This document shows, in pieces, positions 1 through 47,857 of a stretch of 64,000 bases of DNA. The DNA is taken from the IMG/VR virus record IMGVR_UViG_3300012983_000030. One strand, given 5' to 3'. The stretch's first letter is position 1, and each line of letters opens with the position of its first letter. The position numbers and the translations under genes are program-made. The stretch comes from a virus. Its lineage: Duplodnaviria > Heunggongvirae > Uroviricota > Caudoviricetes. Under the pieces are notes generated by a model, which saw only the letters and a list, made by a program, of their open reading frames with translations, did no database searches and had not been told where the DNA came from.

Positions 1-639
1 ATCTTCTTTGTAAGCAGGAATTAAATATTGAACATATTCTTCTGGTAATTTAGAATTAAAAATTACATATGATTCTGTTAAAGTATTTCCTTCAGGTGTA
101 TATGAAATTGTTTCTATATCTGTCGTTTTAGTGAATATTGGTTTCCAACCAGATGCTAATCCATTGGTAGCATACATTTCATGTTCACCAAATTCATATA
201 ATATTTCACCTTTTGGTTTAATAACATCAATATATTCCCCACCTTGGATATTTGTTAAATCATTTGATAATAATTCATTTATTTTTGAAGAAGAATACGT
301 AGATGATGTAGAAACCACATCATCATTTATCATATCTTCTAAATCTGTATCATCAGTAATAATATATGTAATATTATCATTATAAGTACCAAGAGCTTCA
401 TATTCTGCTAAAGTACCTTTCCATAAAGTAGGATTTACATAATTACTAGCCAATACAGTTTTATCTAATACTGTATTTGTAAGTTGTCCATCTTCAGATA
501 AGGATAAGCCTTCACCTGTTGTAATTTTATTTTGTTTTGCATCAACTGCTGTTTTAATGGCTTTTTGAGATGGTATTAAGTAATCTGAATTTTCACTAAA
601 AGTACTATCTGTACTTAAATTTAAGTATTTTGTTGCCAT
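1..639 (-). CDS. tail fiber protein, N-terminal part (partial CDS; the C-terminus lies beyond the window start)
   Basis: Reverse-strand ATG at 639-637 with an AGGAA Shine-Dalgarno site upstream. The N-terminus MATKYLNLSTDSTFSENSDYLIPSQKAIK is paralogous to the N-terminus of the 32648-33790 fiber. The reading frame is open to position 1; the ORF track omits it because it is truncated. Confidence 0.6.
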   Translation of the reverse strand, partial: MATKYLNLSTDSTFSENSDYLIPSQKAIKTAVDAKQNKITTGEGLSLSEDGQLTNTVLDKTVLASNYVNPTLWKGTLAEYEALGTYNDNITYIITDDTDLEDMINDDVVSTSSTYSSSKINELLSNDLTNIQGGEYIDVIKPKGEILYEFGEHEMYATNGLASGWKPIFTKTTDIETISYTPEGNTLTESYVIFNSKLPEEYVQYLIPAYKED

Positions 640-744
640 AGCAAGAAATTCCTGGTAAATATAACTATTTAAAACTATTCCTAATACTATAGAACCAAGA
701 TTTATAAATGACAAGAAATACTTATAGATTTTGGTATTTAATTA

Positions 745-778
745 AAAAGAGAGACATATAAAAAATGTCTCTCTCTTA
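745..778. terminator. bidirectional rho-independent terminator hairpin
   Basis: Perfect inverted repeat AGAGAGACAT / ATGTCTCTCT flanked by an A-run and a T-run. It lies downstream of the minus-strand gene 920-2284. Confidence 0.55.
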
Positions 779-919
779 TTAGACCTGGACTAAACCTCAA
801 AATAGTCTTTAAAGAGGCAGGCCTAGTTAATCATTAAGCACTTTATTATGTCTATACAGCAATAAAATTGTGTTCCGACCGAATACCGAATTTGAAGTGT
901 CTTAATGATCCCCCTCAAA

Positions 920-7954: not shown

Positions 7955-9256
7955 TTAAGCGAAAAAGCGTTTAGAGAAACGTTTTTCTTCTTTAGTTTCA
8001 GCAATGAAATTATCGCAATCTACAGATTCTTTGAAAGCTGCAACGAATTTACCGTATTTACCATCAAAGCAACGTACGCATTCTTTTAATGATTTATTAT
8101 CGAATGTAGCAACGATTTTAGCAATTACACCTTCAGCTAAACCACGAGCAGCTAAAACATTAACCATTCTTACATAATCAGCACCTGATTTTGCAGATTC
8201 TTCGAATCTCTTTAATACACGTTCAGCACATTCTGCAACTGAACAAGATTCAGCAGCAAATGCAGGTTGTTCATTCATATGAGCGCGTAACATTTCATAA
8301 GAAACAGGCTTATCAGCTGAACCATCTGGATTAGCACCCATGAAGTTAGCATAGAACGGATCACCTGTCATGTCATACAAGTCAGCAGCACACCAAGCAG
8401 CGTCTGTACCGTCTTGTTCACATTTATCTAACCATTTTTCAGGAGCAACTTCATAGTTATCTTCGAAATCAGCAACACCAAAATCAAATTCTTCCATTAC
8501 AGGAGCAGCTTCTACATCAAAACCGTCCATAGCTTCAGCAGAATCAAATTCGTTTTCTAAGAAAAGAATACCAGAGTTAGCTTCTTTATTGAAAGCGCCG
8601 ATAACTTTACCAGATTCTGATAATGCAATTTCACGTGCACCAGGTTGTAAAGAACCTTTCATTTCAGAAACGCGAGCAGCAAATTTAGCATAATCTGTCA
8701 TAGATTCACGCATAACTCTGTCAGCTTTAATTACAGACATATGAATTGGAGCTTCGTCAGATTCATCAACTAAGATAGATTCACAAGCCAAAACTCTTTC
8801 TGGATTAATACGGTGTGTACTGAATTTAGCAAATTTGGCTTCTACAGATTCTTTTTGTTCAACGTCAAGTTCAGCAACTTCAACTTCTTCGTTGTCGTCA
8901 TCGGCAAGACTGTCAATAACGTCTTCAACTTCTTCACCGCCCATAACAGCGTCTAAAGCTGGCTTTTCAACGAAGTTAACGTCAGACAACTCATCAGAAG
9001 AAATAACTACGTCTGCAATTTTAGCAGCTAAATCAGCATCAGAAATAACTACAACAGCAGCTTGACCTTGAATAGCCATATCACCTTCAGGAGTAGCACC
9101 GATTTCAGCAACATCACCTTTTTCAAATTCTACATCCATTTCTTCTGTTTCTAAAATTAATTTCTTAGATACAATCCAATTTTTAGATTCTTTTGCAGAT
9201 TCACGTAAAGCTTCACGAGCAACACGAGCTGCCAATCTATTTAAATATTTACTCAT
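7955..9256 (-). CDS. strongly acidic protein, possibly a scaffold or head-core protein (function unknown)
   Basis: 433 aa, very D/E-rich. Codon usage looks like that of a highly expressed gene. Shine-Dalgarno present. Confidence 0.4.
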   Translation of the reverse strand: MSKYLNRLAARVAREALRESAKESKNWIVSKKLILETEEMDVEFEKGDVAEIGATPEGDMAIQGQAAVVVISDADLAAKIADVVISSDELSDVNFVEKPALDAVMGGEEVEDVIDSLADDDNEEVEVAELDVEQKESVEAKFAKFSTHRINPERVLACESILVDESDEAPIHMSVIKADRVMRESMTDYAKFAARVSEMKGSLQPGAREIALSESGKVIGAFNKEANSGILFLENEFDSAEAMDGFDVEAAPVMEEFDFGVADFEDNYEVAPEKWLDKCEQDGTDAAWCAADLYDMTGDPFYANFMGANPDGSADKPVSYEMLRAHMNEQPAFAAESCSVAECAERVLKRFEESAKSGADYVRMVNVLAARGLAEGVIAKIVATFDNKSLKECVRCFDGKYGKFVAAFKESVDCDNFIAETKEEKRFSKRFFA

Positions 9257-25303: not shown

Positions 25304-25419
25304 CGAGAAGTAGCTCAGTCTGGTAGAGCACGTATTTGTATTTAGTCCTAAATACGTACAGCATTATATTTTTTTGCTTGGTAAGCACGTGGTCATTGGT
25401 TCGAATCCAATCTTCTCGC
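25304..25419 (+). ncRNA. tRNA-like gene with a canonical 5' half and T-arm but an extra internal segment of about 42 nt
   Basis: 5' CGAGAAG-TA-GCTCAGTCTGGTAGAGC, T-arm ATTGGTTCGAATCCAAT, acceptor 3' CTTCTCG. The insert holds a 7-bp hairpin (CGTATTT/AAATACG) and a T-run. AGCACGT recurs on both sides of the insert. Confidence 0.4.
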
Positions 25420-35551: not shown

Positions 35552-35626
35552 AGAGGTATAGTTCAGTAGTAGAACATTGATCCCCAAAACCAAATGTCGG
35601 GAGTTCGAATCTCTCTGCCTCTGCCA
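35552..35626 (+). tRNA. tRNA, isotype uncertain (anticodon loop CCCCAAA)
   Basis: Acceptor AGAGGTA/TGCCTCT, D-arm TAGTTCAGTAGTAGAAC, T-arm GGGAGTTCGAATCTCTC, CCA encoded. The anticodon stem has one mismatch and position 33 is C. Confidence 0.45.
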
Positions 35627-35710
35627 TTTTTTATCCTGTTAATGCAGAATCTGTTTTACATTTATAATAGAATATATTATAATTATTATAATATATAGAA
35701 AGGAACAGAT

Positions 35711-36370
35711 ATGTCTGTAACTCATTATGATATTTTAGGAATTAATAAAAATGCTACTTTAAATGAAATTAAAGCGGCTTATAAATCTTTAGCCAAAAAA
35801 TATCATCCTGACATTAATCCAAATACAAGCGATTTATTTAAACAAATAAATGAAGCTTATTCTGTTTTATCTGATTCTGTCAAAAGACATGAATATGATA
35901 GTTTACTTTCTAATGATGATTTAGATATTGAAGATTTAACCGACGATGATTTAGATGCAATAATTTCAAAATTAGAAGAACTTAGAAAAGAAATCTACAA
36001 TAAAGAAAAACAAAAAACAAAATCTAGTTATAAAAAACCAAAACAAGTAACAGAATCTATATTTGATATAGTTAATAATTTTTCTAGTTATAAATTTACA
36101 AAAGGATGCTCACTTTTATGGAATAAAAAAGTAAGTACATTATTTGGAGCATGGTTAATTTTTATATTAGGTACTTTTTATATAACTATAGCAAAGGTTT
36201 TTTGGTTTTTAGCTCCAAAAAATACTAATAAATTCATTTGTAACTGGATTACAGAATTAAAAATTCTTTGTTATCAAGATAAATTGATTAGCACTTTATC
36301 TTGGACTGTCTTTCTATTTATATTGTGGTTTATGAAATTGATATCTAAAATTTTAATGCCTTTTAAATAA
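35711..36370 (+). CDS. DnaJ (J-domain) protein with a C-terminal transmembrane region
   Basis: J-domain: [29 protein letters not shown]; two C-terminal hydrophobic helices. Confidence 0.65.
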
Positions 36371-38972: not shown

Positions 38973-39362
38973 ATGCAAATAAATAAATTATGCAGATTAG
39001 CAAGAGCTTCGTTAATAGAACATTTATATATACAATATCATTTTTATCAATTAAAATCTATTAAAAATTTTGACATAGGTTTTACAATAAGGTCTAAAAA
39101 GAACAAAATCGGTCCAAATACTGCAGAGGTAGTATTAGCCATTTGTTCGCATTGTCCTAATCAATCAGGAGAAATACTAAAAATCTTAAAAACCTACTTA
39201 GAAAAAACATTAGATATAAACTTTGCTTTTAAAAAAACAGAGGAAAAATTATCTGATAATATGTCATTAACACCTATAAGTCATTCGGTGGAATATACAG
39301 CAGAAATCACTAAACAGGAATTAGAAAGTATATACAATACAGTTACCACTTTGGAGAATTAA
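38973..39362 (+). CDS. hypothetical protein
   Basis: 129-aa ORF. Confidence 0.4.
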   Translation: MQINKLCRLARASLIEHLYIQYHFYQLKSIKNFDIGFTIRSKKNKIGPNTAEVVLAICSHCPNQSGEILKILKTYLEKTLDINFAFKKTEEKLSDNMSLTPISHSVEYTAEITKQELESIYNTVTTLEN

Positions 39363-39364
39363 TA

Positions 39365-39820
39365 ATGTATCCTATAAAAAACATTAAAAAATATCTTTTG
39401 AATTTTATAAACGATAGAATATATAAATATATACTATATAATTCTGTATACGCTGAAATTATTACAAAAAGAAATGAATATAGAATATCTATAAATGTTT
39501 TAGATACTACATTAGGTATATGGAATAAAAAGACTCAAAAAGCAATAGAAACTGACTTTAATACTATATGTAGTAAAATAACCGATACTTTTTCTATAGA
39601 GTTTGAAAATACTATAACTGAATCATACATAGAAGACTTAGGAAATGTAAAAACTCATATTAATGAAATAAAAGTGCATACTAGATTATCTAAACCCTTA
39701 TCTAGAAAAGAATTTAAATTATTACCCGTTTTATCTAAAATAAATAAAAACATAGACTTAAAAGAATATAGATATATGTATTGGACACCTTTATTAGAAA
39801 GGACACAATCATGGATATAA
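39365..39820 (+). CDS. hypothetical protein
   Basis: 151-aa ORF. Confidence 0.4.
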   Translation: MYPIKNIKKYLLNFINDRIYKYILYNSVYAEIITKRNEYRISINVLDTTLGIWNKKTQKAIETDFNTICSKITDTFSIEFENTITESYIEDLGNVKTHINEIKVHTRLSKPLSRKEFKLLPVLSKINKNIDLKEYRYMYWTPLLERTQSWI

Positions 39821-40389
39821 ATAAACTATCAAACGCACTACGTAGAAGATTAGCTATATCAGTATACTTAGAAAATGAGTGTATTGATGCTTTACCTACA
39901 GATAGAGATACAAATAACATAAATATATCTTTCTGGATACATAAGACAAGAAGAGATAATAAACGACCCGTATATAAATTAGGAATACATTTAGAATTAC
40001 CTAGACATCATGAGTATTTTAGTCCAGCAAATAAAAACACGTGTGAAAAAATAAAAAATATTTTATATAAGAAATTAAAACAAGAATATAAAATACAATT
40101 AGATATAAACAATGCAGTAATACTAAATACAAGTACACTATTTCACGATAAAATAATATACAGTATTTATACTAAGTCATTTACATATAATAAAATAAAA
40201 CAACTATATACATATCTAAAACTAATACGTGAAACAGATAAACATAATGAAAGCATGCAAGCTAAATATGATCGCTTAACTACACTAGAATTATACGAAG
40301 TAATAGCAACAATAATGCCAAACAGCAATAATATCACTAATGAAGATACTAATGCTATTCTAACGGGATTAGATAACTACTTTGCATAA
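39811..40389 (+). CDS. hypothetical protein
   Basis: Start at ATG 39811 with AAAGGA upstream. The ORF track began it at 39781. Confidence 0.4.
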   Translation: MDINKLSNALRRRLAISVYLENECIDALPTDRDTNNINISFWIHKTRRDNKRPVYKLGIHLELPRHHEYFSPANKNTCEKIKNILYKKLKQEYKIQLDINNAVILNTSTLFHDKIIYSIYTKSFTYNKIKQLYTYLKLIRETDKHNESMQAKYDRLTTLELYEVIATIMPNSNNITNEDTNAILTGLDNYFA

Positions 40390-40989
40390 TAGGATATACT
40401 ACTAGTACTTTCTTACTGACTATTGCTGTGTATATACATACTTACTGACTTTTGCTACAATATTTATGACACTTTACTTACTACGGCTATATATACATCT
40501 TGTTGTCTGCTTTTGACATCTTCTTCTTATTTTTCTGCTGACCTTCTTACGACTTTTCTATTTTCTTTCTAACTTTTCTCTCTTCTGTTTACTGCTGTTT
40601 ACTGACACCTCCTACTGGGTTTTGACTGGCTGCCCTGGTCCCTATATGTAAAGGGCCCGCCCCCGGGGGTCCCCTGGCTGGGTATGGGTCTTTTTAGGTC
40701 CTTATATGTAGGAATCCATATAATTGCTGTAGGAGTCTGTCTTATATTCTGGTTATAAATTATATATGATTTAGGAATCTGTATTCCTGTGGTCAAAAAA
40801 AGTATGTTTATGTGAGTGTTTCGGAATTAGGTAATCGGTAGTCTAATAGTCTACAAATATTCAGCCTGATTATACAGTCTAATTGTTTATGTATAATCTA
40901 AACCTGTAAATGACAAAAACTAAAGTGAAAGGTAAACATGATGTAAATGAAAAAAATATTTTCTCTGTTATTATAAAACTGTCTCGTTG

Positions 40990-41034
40990 TAAATAAACAA
41001 CCTATTTCTTACTAGAGGTAGGTTGTTTTTATTT
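40990..41034 (+). terminator. terminator hairpin fused to a conserved 20-mer (repeat copy 1)
   Basis: Stem AACAACCTA / TAGGTTGTT and a T-run, followed by ACGTAAAGGCCAAC. Confidence 0.45.
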
Positions 41035-41160
41035 TATACCTATACGTAAAGGCCAACTTAATTATGCAGTCTAATTTATTTAGTATATTCTATAATCATA
41101 AAATATAGGCACAGCTGAAAAGTGTATTTGTATTTTATATTACACATGATTTTTCTCAAG

Positions 41161-41215
41161 ATAACCTATACTAAATAAGTGTAGGTTATTTTTTTATTCG
41201 CACGTAAAGGCCAGC
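41161..41215 (+). terminator. terminator hairpin fused to a conserved 20-mer (repeat copy 2)
   Basis: Stem ATAACCTA / TAGGTTAT and a T-run, followed by ACGTAAAGGCCAGC. Confidence 0.45.
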
Positions 41216-41254
41216 CTAATTGTACAACTTAATATAATTGATATATAATAAAGG

Positions 41255-41289
41255 TATAATAAGAAAACAATAAGTTTAATCTTATTATA
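41255..41289 (+). repeat. stem-loop repeat 1 (stem TATAATAAG/CTTATTATA, loop AAAACAATAAGTTTAAT)
   Basis: Read directly from the sequence; the loop sequence is conserved across all three copies. Confidence 0.6.
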
Positions 41290-41374
41290 GATAAAAAAAT
41301 TATAATAAAGTGTTTTAATGTTCAACTTAATTATAATATATGATCAACTTAATAAATATATATTATAATAAAAC

Positions 41375-41409
41375 TATAATAAAGAAACATTAAGTTTAAC
41401 TTTATTATA
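41375..41409 (+). repeat. stem-loop repeat 2 (stem TATAATAAAG/CTTTATTATA, loop AAACATTAAGTTTAA)
   Basis: Read directly from the sequence; the stem covaries with the loop unchanged. Confidence 0.6.
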
Positions 41410-41500
41410 AAATATAAAAACTTCAAAAAATAAATAAATTAAATGACCAGCCTAATAAAAATAATTGATCAACAAAATATTTATAATATATAATAAAATT

Positions 41501-41533
41501 ATAAATAAAAAACAATACGTTTAATTTATTTAT
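41501..41533 (+). repeat. stem-loop repeat 3 (stem ATAAATAAA/TTTATTTAT, loop AAACAATACGTTTAA)
   Basis: Read directly from the sequence; the stem covaries with the loop unchanged. Confidence 0.6.
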
Positions 41534-41692
41534 AAATACGAATCCTCACCAACCTAAATTATACTATACACCAACCGAATTTATATACCATAATACAACT
41601 ACATATTGAGTATAAAATATGTGGTTATACTATAGTATATATTCGGACAATATACTATAGAATTGTAAACCTAACTTTAAAGGAGATAAATC

Positions 41693-42034
41693 ATGACAAA
41701 AGCAAAATCATTACAAGAAGTTAAACAATTACGTGAAGCAAACAAACCGGCATTGTTTAATATGGCAGTTGCATTAGATGTAGTTAAAACAACTGCTCCA
41801 AAGACTAAAGGGACTGGTGTATTGTCAACCTTTAGTACAGATTTGATTAACTTGTTTAAAGAAGCTGGAGCACAACTTGCAGTCAATCAAGTAGTTGCAG
41901 CATTCAAAGCAAATGATATAGAAGTGACTTCAAAACAAGTTGCAGATAGATGTTGGTTGCTTGCTAAGAAAGGTATCTTAGAGAAAGGCGACGCTAAAGG
42001 TACTTATGTATATAAGAGCGACGCTCAAGCATAG
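41693..42034 (+). CDS. hypothetical protein, first gene downstream of the control region
   Basis: Strong Shine-Dalgarno AAGGAG. The 113-aa product is rich in A/K/V. Confidence 0.5.
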   Translation: MTKAKSLQEVKQLREANKPALFNMAVALDVVKTTAPKTKGTGVLSTFSTDLINLFKEAGAQLAVNQVVAAFKANDIEVTSKQVADRCWLLAKKGILEKGDAKGTYVYKSDAQA

Positions 42035-46622: not shown

Positions 46623-46814
46623 ATGGCTTGTTATAAAATAACATTTAAAGAATCTTATGAATACATAAAATTTATTGAAACAGATGATAATGAAGATATC
46701 AATGAAATAATTAGAGACCCATTACAATGTCCAAGAGTAGTTGATATGACTAATGATGAATATCAAGAACTCAATGGAATATGTGTCAATGAGTATGAAG
46801 TAGAAGAAGTCTGA
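46623..46814 (+). CDS. hypothetical protein
   Basis: 63-aa ORF; Shine-Dalgarno AAAGGAA. Confidence 0.4.
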   Translation: MACYKITFKESYEYIKFIETDDNEDINEIIRDPLQCPRVVDMTNDEYQELNGICVNEYEVEEV

Positions 46815-46874
46815 CCTCTGTAAAAATTTGCAGAGGTTTATTTTTAACCTAACCACATTAAAGGAGAACAGATC

Positions 46875-47276: not shown

Positions 47277-47383
47277 TGTAAAAAAATGTGTATAACTCAA
47301 ATCGTTAACTACTTATTAGTAAATCCTATTTTATAATTCAACCTGATTTATGATTATTATAATTAGGGAAAGGAGTTTATATT

Positions 47384-47857
47384 ATGACTGAAAAGAAAAG
47401 ACCACCAAAACCAACGCTTGAGGAATTAAGGAAACTTATTGCTGAAGCAAATGAAAAACTTGGACGACAACACGGTCGTGCAGGTAAAGAAAATGAAACT
47501 GAGGAACAAGAGTACAAAAGACTTTATAACAATTGGAAGTCTAGAGAATCTCGTGACCGTAAAAAGAAATTGGAAAAACACCAAGAACGTTCATACCGTG
47601 AATTACTTGGGTTTAATGCTGATGAAGATGAGTATGGAATCAGACCTGTTGATGAACGCAGATATCGTGCATGCTTTAAGTCAGCACCAATTGGTAGCAT
47701 AGTGTATAGAGACTATGTAAAAAGAATGACTGGACTAAGTAAAAATCAAATATATATAATGCAACAAAGAACTGGTCTAGTACCTCATCCCGCTGTGACT
47801 AAAAAGGAAGCAGATGCAGATGAGAAAAGACGCTGGGAAACAGGAGACTACTTCTAA
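47384..47857 (+). CDS. hypothetical basic protein
   Basis: 157-aa ORF; Shine-Dalgarno AAAGGAG. Confidence 0.45.
   Translation: MTEKKRPPKPTLEELRKLIAEANEKLGRQHGRAGKENETEEQEYKRLYNNWKSRESRDRKKKLEKHQERSYRELLGFNADEDEYGIRPVDERRYRACFKSAPIGSIVYRDYVKRMTGLSKNQIYIMQQRTGLVPHPAVTKKEADADEKRRWETGDYF

Follow-up and report, generated by a model that had tools for sequence, protein, structure and literature searches.

A triplicated promoter-proximal stem-loop in the genome of an uncultured T4-like phage: a candidate 5'-terminal leader hairpin

Small hairpins and tandem promoters at the head of transcription units have been described in several systems, and these are the closest points of reference for an array of three stem-loops in the viral record IMGVR_UViG_3300012983_000030, of which a stretch of 64,000 nucleotides was analyzed (hereafter, the window). 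The 5' stabilizer stem-loops of bacterial and phage messenger RNAs (mRNAs), as in the ompA and papA leaders, are located at the extreme 5' end of the transcript, preceded by zero to one unpaired nucleotide, and their function depends on this position (Emory, Bouvet and Belasco 1992). The original reports on mRNA stabilization by 5' stem-loops are listed in a review, according to which RppH requires at least two unpaired 5' nucleotides (PMC3997798). In phage HK022, put is a cis-acting structured RNA from the 5' end of the early transcript, whose ~70 nt form two stem-loops plus an RNA triplex; the putL site, located immediately after PL, holds a −10-like element, proposed by its authors to cause sigma-dependent pausing and to aid folding (PMC9378689). 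At the lambda promoter PR', a pause at +16/+17 is caused by a consensus −10-like element at +1 to +6 (PMC9191641). The boxB hairpin of the lambda nut site, which belongs to the N system, has a 5-bp stem and a conserved loop with a GNRA-like fold, and lies close to an early promoter. The early region of T7 is headed by three tandem promoters for the host RNA polymerase (RNAP), A1, A2, and A3, ~100 bp apart. In phage N4, the hairpin is itself the promoter of the virion RNAP on a single-stranded template, featuring stems of 5–7 bp and loops of 3 nt.

The array studied here resides in a non-coding, very AT-rich spacer of 1.3 kb (40400–41692) in the genome of an uncultured, AT-rich (~29% GC), large T4-like myovirus, between a + strand gene block ending at 40389 and a + strand cluster of mostly small genes with no assigned function, extending from 41693 to ~62.6 kb. 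It represents a tandem triplication of a ~120-bp module (41196–41550) with 60–73% identity between modules, the conserved blocks being a directly repeated pair of CARYYTRAT boxes, of which the proximal overlaps the −35, then TATAAT without mismatch, a spacer of 4–5 nt, and the hairpin (Table 1). We propose, with a confidence somewhat short of even, that the hairpin is a cis-acting 5'-terminal leader RNA that guards the transcript at its 5' end and probably serves as the binding site of a factor. The three stem-loops, starting 120 and 124 nt apart, were found where a preliminary description made from the sequence had placed them at intervals of about 120 bp. What was taken there for a loop of 15–17 nt is itself structured: in the common fold of the three copies, a lower stem of 10–11 bp is followed by the unchanging pairs AAAC/GUUU as a 4-bp upper stem, two A residues bulge out on the 3' side, and the apical loop, A(A/U)UA(A/C), comprises 5 nt.

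Compared to the described systems, the hairpins resemble the ompA and papA stabilizers in their predicted place at the extreme 5' end, and a position-dependent function fits their fixed distance of 4–5 nt from the −10 in every module. However, those stabilizers have neither a conserved apical sequence nor a bulge and form no sequence family, and stabilization is a prediction here. With put, the element would share the origin from the 5' end of an early phage transcript and stems that are kept by pairing, but it is a single bulged hairpin of 35 nt, one per promoter and three times over, with no sequence similarity to put and no Rfam match. A further defining property of put RNAs is the suppression of termination in cis by way of the zinc-binding domain of the RNAP beta' subunit. 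Lambda boxB, too, combines small size, a conserved loop, and the vicinity of an early promoter, whereas the stem of the present hairpins measures 14–15 bp and includes a bulge. The product of the first gene of the cluster has no arginine-rich N-terminus, neither an arginine-rich N-like gene nor a Q-like gene was found, and boxA was not found, although no formal boxA search was made. A consensus −10-like hexamer at ~+1 to +6 is common to the array and to lambda PR', the latter being a single late promoter. The array also shares with T7 the three tandem promoters ~100 bp apart, but T7 is not known to have a matching hairpin at +1, and one RNase III site follows the whole set there. Similar to N4, three hairpin-containing early promoter elements are present in a phage genome; unlike in N4, the stems are 14–15 bp long and located downstream of an ordinary −10, and the phage is a T4-like myovirus. 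By analogy, the element would work most like a 5'-terminal stabilizer hairpin and may also resemble putL or boxB in its action. The most fitting label is that of a promoter-proximal leader hairpin in a clade-restricted variant, outside every described family but not a new kind of system.

Folding analysis yielded RNA energies between −6.9 and −8.7 kcal/mol for the hairpins (z = −3.5 to −4.4), values equaled by none of 200 shuffles. Perfect hairpins of at least 10 bp were counted five times in the 355-bp array versus 0.19 times in its dinucleotide shuffles (~25-fold; 0 of 300 shuffles reached five), and 6 of the 15 such hairpins in the whole window are located within 41255–41660. The apical motif AAACAWTAMGTTTAA occurs in exactly three copies in the 64 kb window, all of them at the hairpins. 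The hairpin starts 4–5 nt after the −10 in each module of the window and likewise in every orthologue, so that the usual transcription start at the seventh nucleotide would fall on nucleotide 2–3 of the stem. In minimum free energy folds of transcripts beginning at or next to the predicted P1 and P3 starts, the 5'-terminal hairpin persists, while in the fold of the P1 transcript the internal hairpin copies give way to alternative pairings.

The compensatory stem changes and the conserved apical part reported previously were confirmed by quantitative comparison. Between the three copies, 4 of 14 pairs changed on both sides and 100% of the cells remained paired, all of them Watson–Crick; neither the paired percentage nor the covariation score was reached by any of 500 shuffles, and slid registers were only 36–50% paired. 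Variable columns between the paralogues amounted to 79% in the ordinary module, 40% in the lower stem (all compensated), 13% in the apical 15 nt, and 0% in the −10. For the orthologue comparison, the window was aligned with three metagenomic contigs carrying the same locus with ~90% spacer identity: L004 (Logan SRR29277929), L005 (JGI 3300041712), and L011 (JAEIGA010000010.1, a 241-kb contig). The element is kept in all three of these close relatives and thus, as far as close relatives go, passes the conservation check that the preliminary description had set. Variable positions numbered 0 of 62 in the lower stems and 2 of 107 in the whole hairpins versus 42 of 298 in the remaining spacer (Fisher p = 3e-4 and 2e-4, respectively), both variable hairpin positions being located in the apical loop of hairpin 3. 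Within this sample of three paralogues and four very similar genomes, the hairpins are the best-conserved part of the spacer and are under purifying selection, and the data support selection for pairing together with conservation of the apical part.

These results bear directly on the possibility that the repeats are neutral AT-rich duplications with no function, whose palindromes were retained by chance, templated repair, or gene conversion. The composition is indeed very AT-rich, and the hairpin 3 loop of L004, L005, and L011 (ATTAA) is identical to the hairpin 2 loop, which could reflect conversion between copies. However, conversion would homogenize whole modules and not just the apical 15 nt, and neutral repeats would be expected neither to show the local excess of long hairpins nor to keep the hairpins better than the rest of the spacer, as was seen between orthologues as well as between paralogues, which makes this explanation highly improbable.

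Regarding the promoters, the near-consensus −35/−10 pairs ascribed to the copies in the preliminary description were found in part. TATAAT is present in all three modules, and each hairpin lies just behind a sigma70-like promoter as judged by consensus, whereas the −35 hexamers match the consensus at only 3–4 of 6 positions, and that of module 2 reads ATGATC instead of TTGATC. A consensus promoter scan lists modules 1 and 3, but not module 2. In L004, L005, and L011, the −35 of module 3 is TTGACC, and its −10 is CATAAT in L011 and L005. Matches to CARYYTRAT number 21 in the window, corresponding to the overall chance level; nine of them lie within 40862–41456, all on the + strand. At the spacer, the boxes pair up with a spacing of 13 or 22 bp across ~600 bp (40862–41478, including the variant CAACAAAAT), and the proximal box starts 19 bp before the −10 in modules 1–3. 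Such boxes may be sites for a lineage-specific activator or initiator. The box-to-(−10) geometry of the modules is repeated at 47339–47364, upstream of the gene at 47384. Moreover, the module 3 −10 is enclosed by a perfect inverted repeat of TATAAT-like words with a 10-bp stem (41478–41507), which competes with the 5' arm of hairpin 3; both this repeat and the inverted repeat of module 2 (41330–41369) are retained in L011.

According to the leader-hairpin reading, the three modules would feed the long + strand small-gene cluster, whose designation as an 'early' operon is suggested by its many small genes of no known function. Each module would act as a sigma70-type promoter with a perfect −10 and a weak −35 that is overlapped by a lineage-specific box, and each transcript would begin with the hairpin as its 5' end, fully paired and without a single-stranded tail. 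This paired end would block 5'-end-dependent decay (by RppH, RNase E, or RNase J) and thereby stabilize the operon mRNA. A hairpin within ~0–2 nt of the 5' end, as is typical of a 5'-terminal stabilizer, fits the predicted start sites A41256, A41376, and A41501. A role at the 5' end explains why every promoter has its own hairpin at a fixed distance, since a nut, RNase III, or other processing site would be needed only once, downstream; each promoter has retained its hairpin although the remaining module has diverged. The invariant apical part (AAAC/GUUU helix, AA bulge, and the A-U-A positions of the loop) would probably be contacted by a factor: helix, bulge, and loop are dispensable for end protection, which suggests an additional binding partner. 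The asymmetric, conserved AA bulge is a mark of a folded single strand and not of a symmetric duplex site.

To evaluate the design beyond the close relatives, loci were collected through the 113-aa protein encoded by the first gene of the cluster, for which 25 homologue clusters were obtained; upstream DNA was fetched for several of these, and a profile search of IMG/VR with the family recovered no new loci. In loci with enough upstream sequence, homologues of the first gene stand after a long non-coding spacer, and in every such lineage this spacer is repeat-rich, with tandem promoter-like modules and lineage-specific boxes (TTCAAGGYT in L006; YTTTGTGA, in ~13 copies, in L016). Lineage L014, whose first gene is 44% identical, features three tandem modules composed of TATAAT or TATATT, then 4 nt, and then a bulged hairpin. 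Its outer stem reads AACGAA/UUCGUU once and AAUAAA/UUUAUU twice, corresponding to two compensated pairs, the inner stem AAAUAU/AUAUUU is invariant, a bulge of AAA lies on the 3' side, and the loops are of the GNRA type (GCAA/GCGA), recalling the fold of boxB. The design is thus the same, realized in a different sequence, and the GNRA loops suggest RNA. Beyond the close clade, conservation is partial and of architecture only. In L021, the product of the gene diverging from the equivalent spacer (1–791, minus strand) measures 301 aa and has a sigma-70 region 4 domain, a hint that phage-encoded sigma factors may act near this regulatory region in some relatives.

The statement that no described element matches the array held in searches of Rfam release 15: in the whole window, only transfer RNAs (tRNAs) were reported at the gathering threshold, and a search of 40300–41750 with E-values up to 5 gave no match over 41196–41550. 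A covariance model of the hairpins recovered the true copies with 53–66 bits, but no extra or diverged copy in the window and 17 related loci, distant relatives included, the best other match reaching 27 bits. DNA pattern scans returned only chance matches in IMG/VR, and in JGI metagenomes the close relative L011 (two matches) plus chance matches. Five matches were obtained in representative bacterial and archaeal genomes, of which L024 and L027 were inspected; both proved to be chance matches in bacterial coding DNA, so that there is no sign of a mimicked host element or of a clustered regularly interspaced short palindromic repeat (CRISPR). Among 50,697 GenBank phage records, the region had no match, and no usable relative was detected by megablast (near search) or blastn (distant search). 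Taken from these scans, the hairpin sequence family appears to be confined to one clade of uncultured phages. CRISPR arrays consist of near-identical repeats of 28–37 nt that are ~60–75 nt apart; a CRISPR repeat or a solitary-repeat RNA anti-CRISPR was rejected, the present spacing being 120–124 nt and the stems differing among copies. A small coding sequence was rejected as well: the 43-aa open reading frame (ORF) at 41194–41325 (minus strand) has a TTG start and lies within the repeats. A hairpin right after the −10 as a general promoter feature of the phage was also dismissed, because scanning the + strand of the window for TATAAT followed within 3–8 nt by a long hairpin revealed only one other site. 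At this site (35663–35696), an 11-bp perfect palindrome, ATATATTATAA-TTA-TTATAATATAT, is located between the gene for tRNA-Trp (35552–35626) and an ORF at 35711.

Several observations weigh against a 5'-terminal leader RNA. The promoters were recognized by consensus only, their −35 hexamers are weak, and the region contains 40 promoter-like matches compared to 47 in shuffles. The stems are nearly all A-U, with one C-G pair in the upper stem and one extra G-C pair in hairpins 1 and 2, and reach merely −7 to −9 kcal/mol. As all stems are Watson–Crick with no G-U pair, RNA, single-stranded DNA, and a cruciform are indistinguishable from the sequence, and DNA folding energies of the three hairpins are similar to the RNA values. 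Furthermore, the covariation is based on three paralogous copies, the orthologues being nearly identical. The motif is confined to this locus in the scans and is therefore not a general feature of the phage's transcripts. A simple 5' stabilizer needs no conserved apical sequence, so a second function must be assumed. With regard to the distant lineages, z values of the L014 hairpins are weak (−0.9 to −1.9) and a T-run follows them, unlike the hairpins of the window, and folds at the equivalent place in L006 and L018 were not better than shuffles.

Table 1. Positions of the promoter modules, hairpins, leader, and associated features (window coordinates unless a lineage is named).
Feature	Position	Strand	Description
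Module 1 boxes	41212–41233	+	CAGCCTAAT 41212–41220 and CAACTTAAT 41225–41233; flank/overlap −35 TTGTAC 41220–41225 / TGTACA 41221–41226
Module 1 −10 TATAAT	41244–41249	+	predicted start ~A41256, from the 7-nt distance rule
Hairpin 1	41255–41289	+	lower stem TATAATAAGA/TCTTATTATA, upper stem AAAC/GTTT, bulge AA, loop AATAA; model R1 65.5 bits
Module 2 boxes	41323–41353	+	CAACTTAAT at 41323–41331 and 41345–41353; weak −35 ATGATC 41340–41345 / TGATCA 41341–41346
Module 2 inverted repeat	41330–41341 / 41358–41369		perfect 12-bp stem, TATAAT-like words, encloses −35
Module 2 −10 TATAAT	41364–41369	+	predicted start ~A41376
Hairpin 2	41375–41409	+	lower stem TATAATAAAG/CTTTATTATA, upper stem AAAC/GTTT, bulge AA, loop ATTAA; model R1 63.9 bits
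Module 3 boxes	41448–41478	+	CAGCCTAAT 41448–41456, −35 TTGATC 41465–41470, variant box CAACAAAAT 41470–41478
Module 3 −10 TATAAT	41489–41494	+	predicted start ~A41501
Hairpin 3	41499–41535	+	lower stem TTATAAATAAA/TTTATTTATAA (11 bp), upper stem AAAC/GTTT, bulge AA, loop AATAC; model R1 58.6 bits
Structured leader	41575–41660	+	common to all three predicted transcripts; long imperfect hairpin 41575–41647
Leader palindrome	41630–41660	+	11 bp, CTATAGTATAT-N9-ATATACTATAG
Ribosome-binding site (RBS) and first gene	41680–42034	+	RBS AAGGAG 41680–41685; gene 41693–42034, 113 aa
Landmark	40605–40700; L011 970–1060; L006 85–160; L014 1790–1860; L018 1385–1440; L020 1345–1410		

It had been suggested that the array encodes three short structured RNAs, and each hairpin does have its own promoter. 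However, the + strand sequence following the hairpins is A-rich (GAUAAAAAAA, AAAAUAUAAA, and AUACGAAUCC), and the terminator scan, which reports terminators at 40995 and 41158, detected neither a terminator nor a U-tract after any of them on this strand. Separate short RNAs are thus not supported; with no terminator before the gene at 41693, the predicted transcripts run on into the leader and this gene. A related proposal, that the hairpins are weak intrinsic terminators for minus-strand transcription, draws on the U-rich tails that follow each hairpin on the minus strand (CCUUUAUUAU, GUUUUAUUAU, and UUUUAUUAU). These tails are only the complement of TATAATAAA, and downstream of the hairpins there is no minus-strand ORF of at least 90 aa before 63090, for which reasons the minus-strand version was rejected. 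The real terminators of the phage carry G-C pairs and T-runs (40995–41028 and 41158–41192); the combination of a G+C-containing stem and a U-tract on the transcribed strand, which would mark an intrinsic terminator or an independent small RNA, was not found at the hairpins. Together, these variants are very improbable.

A different role for the hairpins arises from the sequence of their 5' arms, each of which forms a second −10-like hexamer (TATAAT, TATAAT, and TATAAA) exactly 11 bp after the −10. All three modules hence carry, at ~+1 to +6 of the non-template strand, the sequence feature of a sigma-dependent pause element, whose pause would be expected ~10–12 nt farther downstream, and all four copies of TATAAT-N5-TATAA in the window are located within 41233–41504. 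In a pause-coupled RNA element resembling put, nut, or Q-dependent sites, this hexamer (~−1 to +5) would hold RNAP at ~+14 to +17, and the nascent hairpin, or a protein attached to its conserved apical part, would then create a termination-resistant or otherwise altered complex for the long operon. The −10-like elements at lambda PR' and in HK022 putL serve as precedents, the double −10 is retained in the promoter arrays of L006 (TATAATAAATTATAAT) and L018 (TATAATAAAATTATAAT) and, by eye, more loosely in L014, and specific recognition would be well served by the conserved apical sequence and bulge. Inside the cluster, moreover, there is an intrinsic terminator (46813–46838), although it is the sole clear internal one in ~20 kb. 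Against this, a single antitermination site downstream of all three promoters would suffice, no structure with the two stem-loops of the put RNAs is present here, none being reported by Rfam either, and a Q-, N-, or put-type partner was not identified. TATAAT is also common in this genome of 29% GC (249 copies), so the second hexamer could be the AT-rich base of a stem. Overall, a pause-coupled element is rather unlikely. We give little credence to the broader conjecture of a promoter-coupled switch, in which the −10 repeat at +1 would pause sigma-containing RNAP, while the nascent A-bulged hairpin, or a phage protein reading the AAAC/GUUU-AA top, would reprogram the polymerase or mark the transcript; this design would have been re-invented with different hairpins (GNRA in L014) across a clade of AT-rich T4-like phages with genomes of ~240 kb.

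The stretch between the array and the first gene is structured as well (211-nt fold including the leader: z = −4.8). By eye, leader-like hairpins before the RBS were also noticed in L006 (~725–770), L009 (~735–765), L014 (~2443–2470), and L016 (~625–670); these appear to be based on CTATAG/ATATAG with differing stems and a GACA-containing loop, followed by an ATT(T)TGTAAA-like sequence. In the leader of L011, one pair seems to be G-U on the + strand, which would favor an RNA structure.

The protein encoded next, which has no Pfam or PHROG match, is predicted to adopt a C-terminal winged-helix fold (predicted local distance difference test, pLDDT, of 80–87 over residues 50–110), with Foldseek matches to the DNA-binding domains of MarR, Fur, IclR, and PadR, to Zalpha, and to cullin-WHB. 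It is therefore a candidate regulator in a further explanation, according to which the hairpins are DNA operators, i.e., imperfect palindromes of 35 bp across the start sites that are bound as duplex or cruciform by a phage protein shutting off or tuning the promoters, possibly by autoregulation. The AAAC-N5-GTTT core forms a palindrome of 13 bp that never varies, its half-sites being 9 bp apart and its center lying at ~+16, and the extra inverted repeats enclosing the P2 −35 and the P3 −10 would be in line with operators. However, a sequence-reading protein leaves the complementary changes in the outer arms unexplained, the AA bulge shifts these arms out of register for a symmetric dimer, and the Foldseek E-values are weak (0.02–0.1). 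In addition, lineages without the hairpin sequence have nearly the same recognition helix (SKQVADRCWLLAKKG), which makes it more likely that the winged-helix protein reads something conserved between them. DNA operators are accordingly considered unlikely, albeit worth weighing.

The spacer as a whole could also be a replication origin or another DNA-structural region, in which tandem promoters, meltable palindromes, and iteron-like boxes would serve transcription-primed initiation, as at the primary origin of T7 or at oriF and oriG of T4. This would accord with the non-coding nature and very high AT content of the 1.3-kb region separating the two + strand gene blocks, with boxes clustered in one orientation, with dense palindromes, and with a long repeat-rich spacer at this position in every lineage examined. 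However, the cumulative GC skew has no turning point near 41 kb, its minimum at ~14–15 kb coinciding with a change of gene strand, and no initiator gene was recognized nearby. An origin would likewise not explain the fixed hairpin-to-(−10) distance and the compensatory changes, and this possibility is improbable.

Upstream of the array, two further units (40852–41036 and 41044–41198) each consist of a CARYYTRAT pair, TATAAT, ~95–130 nt, and a good intrinsic terminator with a T-run. Unit 2 is missing in L004 and present in L011. A coding role for unit 1 was rejected, since its 28-codon ORF is cut to 8 codons in L004; both units are therefore probably small non-coding RNAs. Further upstream, a conserved non-coding landmark was observed in six lineages (Table 1), consisting of CTACTG(G/A), ~35 nt, and TATA(C/T)GTAAAGG(G/C)CCC leading into a G+C-rich hairpin, preceded by a strand-biased pyrimidine tract in the window and by a purine tract in L014. 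In the window, ACGTAAAGGCC recurs after both of the terminators just described (41047 and 41202). Possible roles of the landmark are those of a structured RNA, a packaging site, or an origin signal. Its sub-threshold Rfam match on the minus strand (L2-Alphaproteobacteria leader, 25.9 bits versus a gathering threshold of 37.8) is probably due to chance.

Regarding the remaining window, the tail sheath protein (664 aa) shows ~25% identity to T4 gp18 homologues, and the 432-aa protein encoded at 7955–9253 has no match among the GenBank phage records searched. The three consecutive ORFs just before the spacer (129, 151, and 202 aa) have no Pfam or PHROG match; by eye, the ORFs at 38973–39362 and 39781–40389 have similar N-termini (M.INKL...) and may be paralogues. 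The window contains 23 tRNA genes, and no element resembling a tRNA or transfer-messenger RNA was detected between 35626 and 64000 (ARAGORN, Rfam tRNA model). At 25304–25419, the Rfam search gave a tRNA match of 46.8 bits whose anticodon-loop region contains 46 inserted nucleotides; ARAGORN made no call there, and this may be an intron-containing tRNA gene of the tRNA cluster.

The same general layout, comprising the landmark motif, lineage-specific box arrays, tandem promoters, a structured leader, and the winged-helix first gene, was found in all six distinct lineages that were inspected, have the first gene in common, and still include more than ~300 nt upstream of it. The wider region thus looks like a regulatory hub of this phage group. 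Within it, the module of promoter, second −10, and 35-nt hairpin is small enough for synthesis. If the hairpins are functional 5'-leader elements, they would provide a candidate recognition motif for an RNA–protein or RNA–polymerase interaction with no described relatives. They would also represent a compact and easily testable example of output control in the first transcription units of a large uncultured phage, in which each of three promoters is firmly tied to one and the same structured 5' end.

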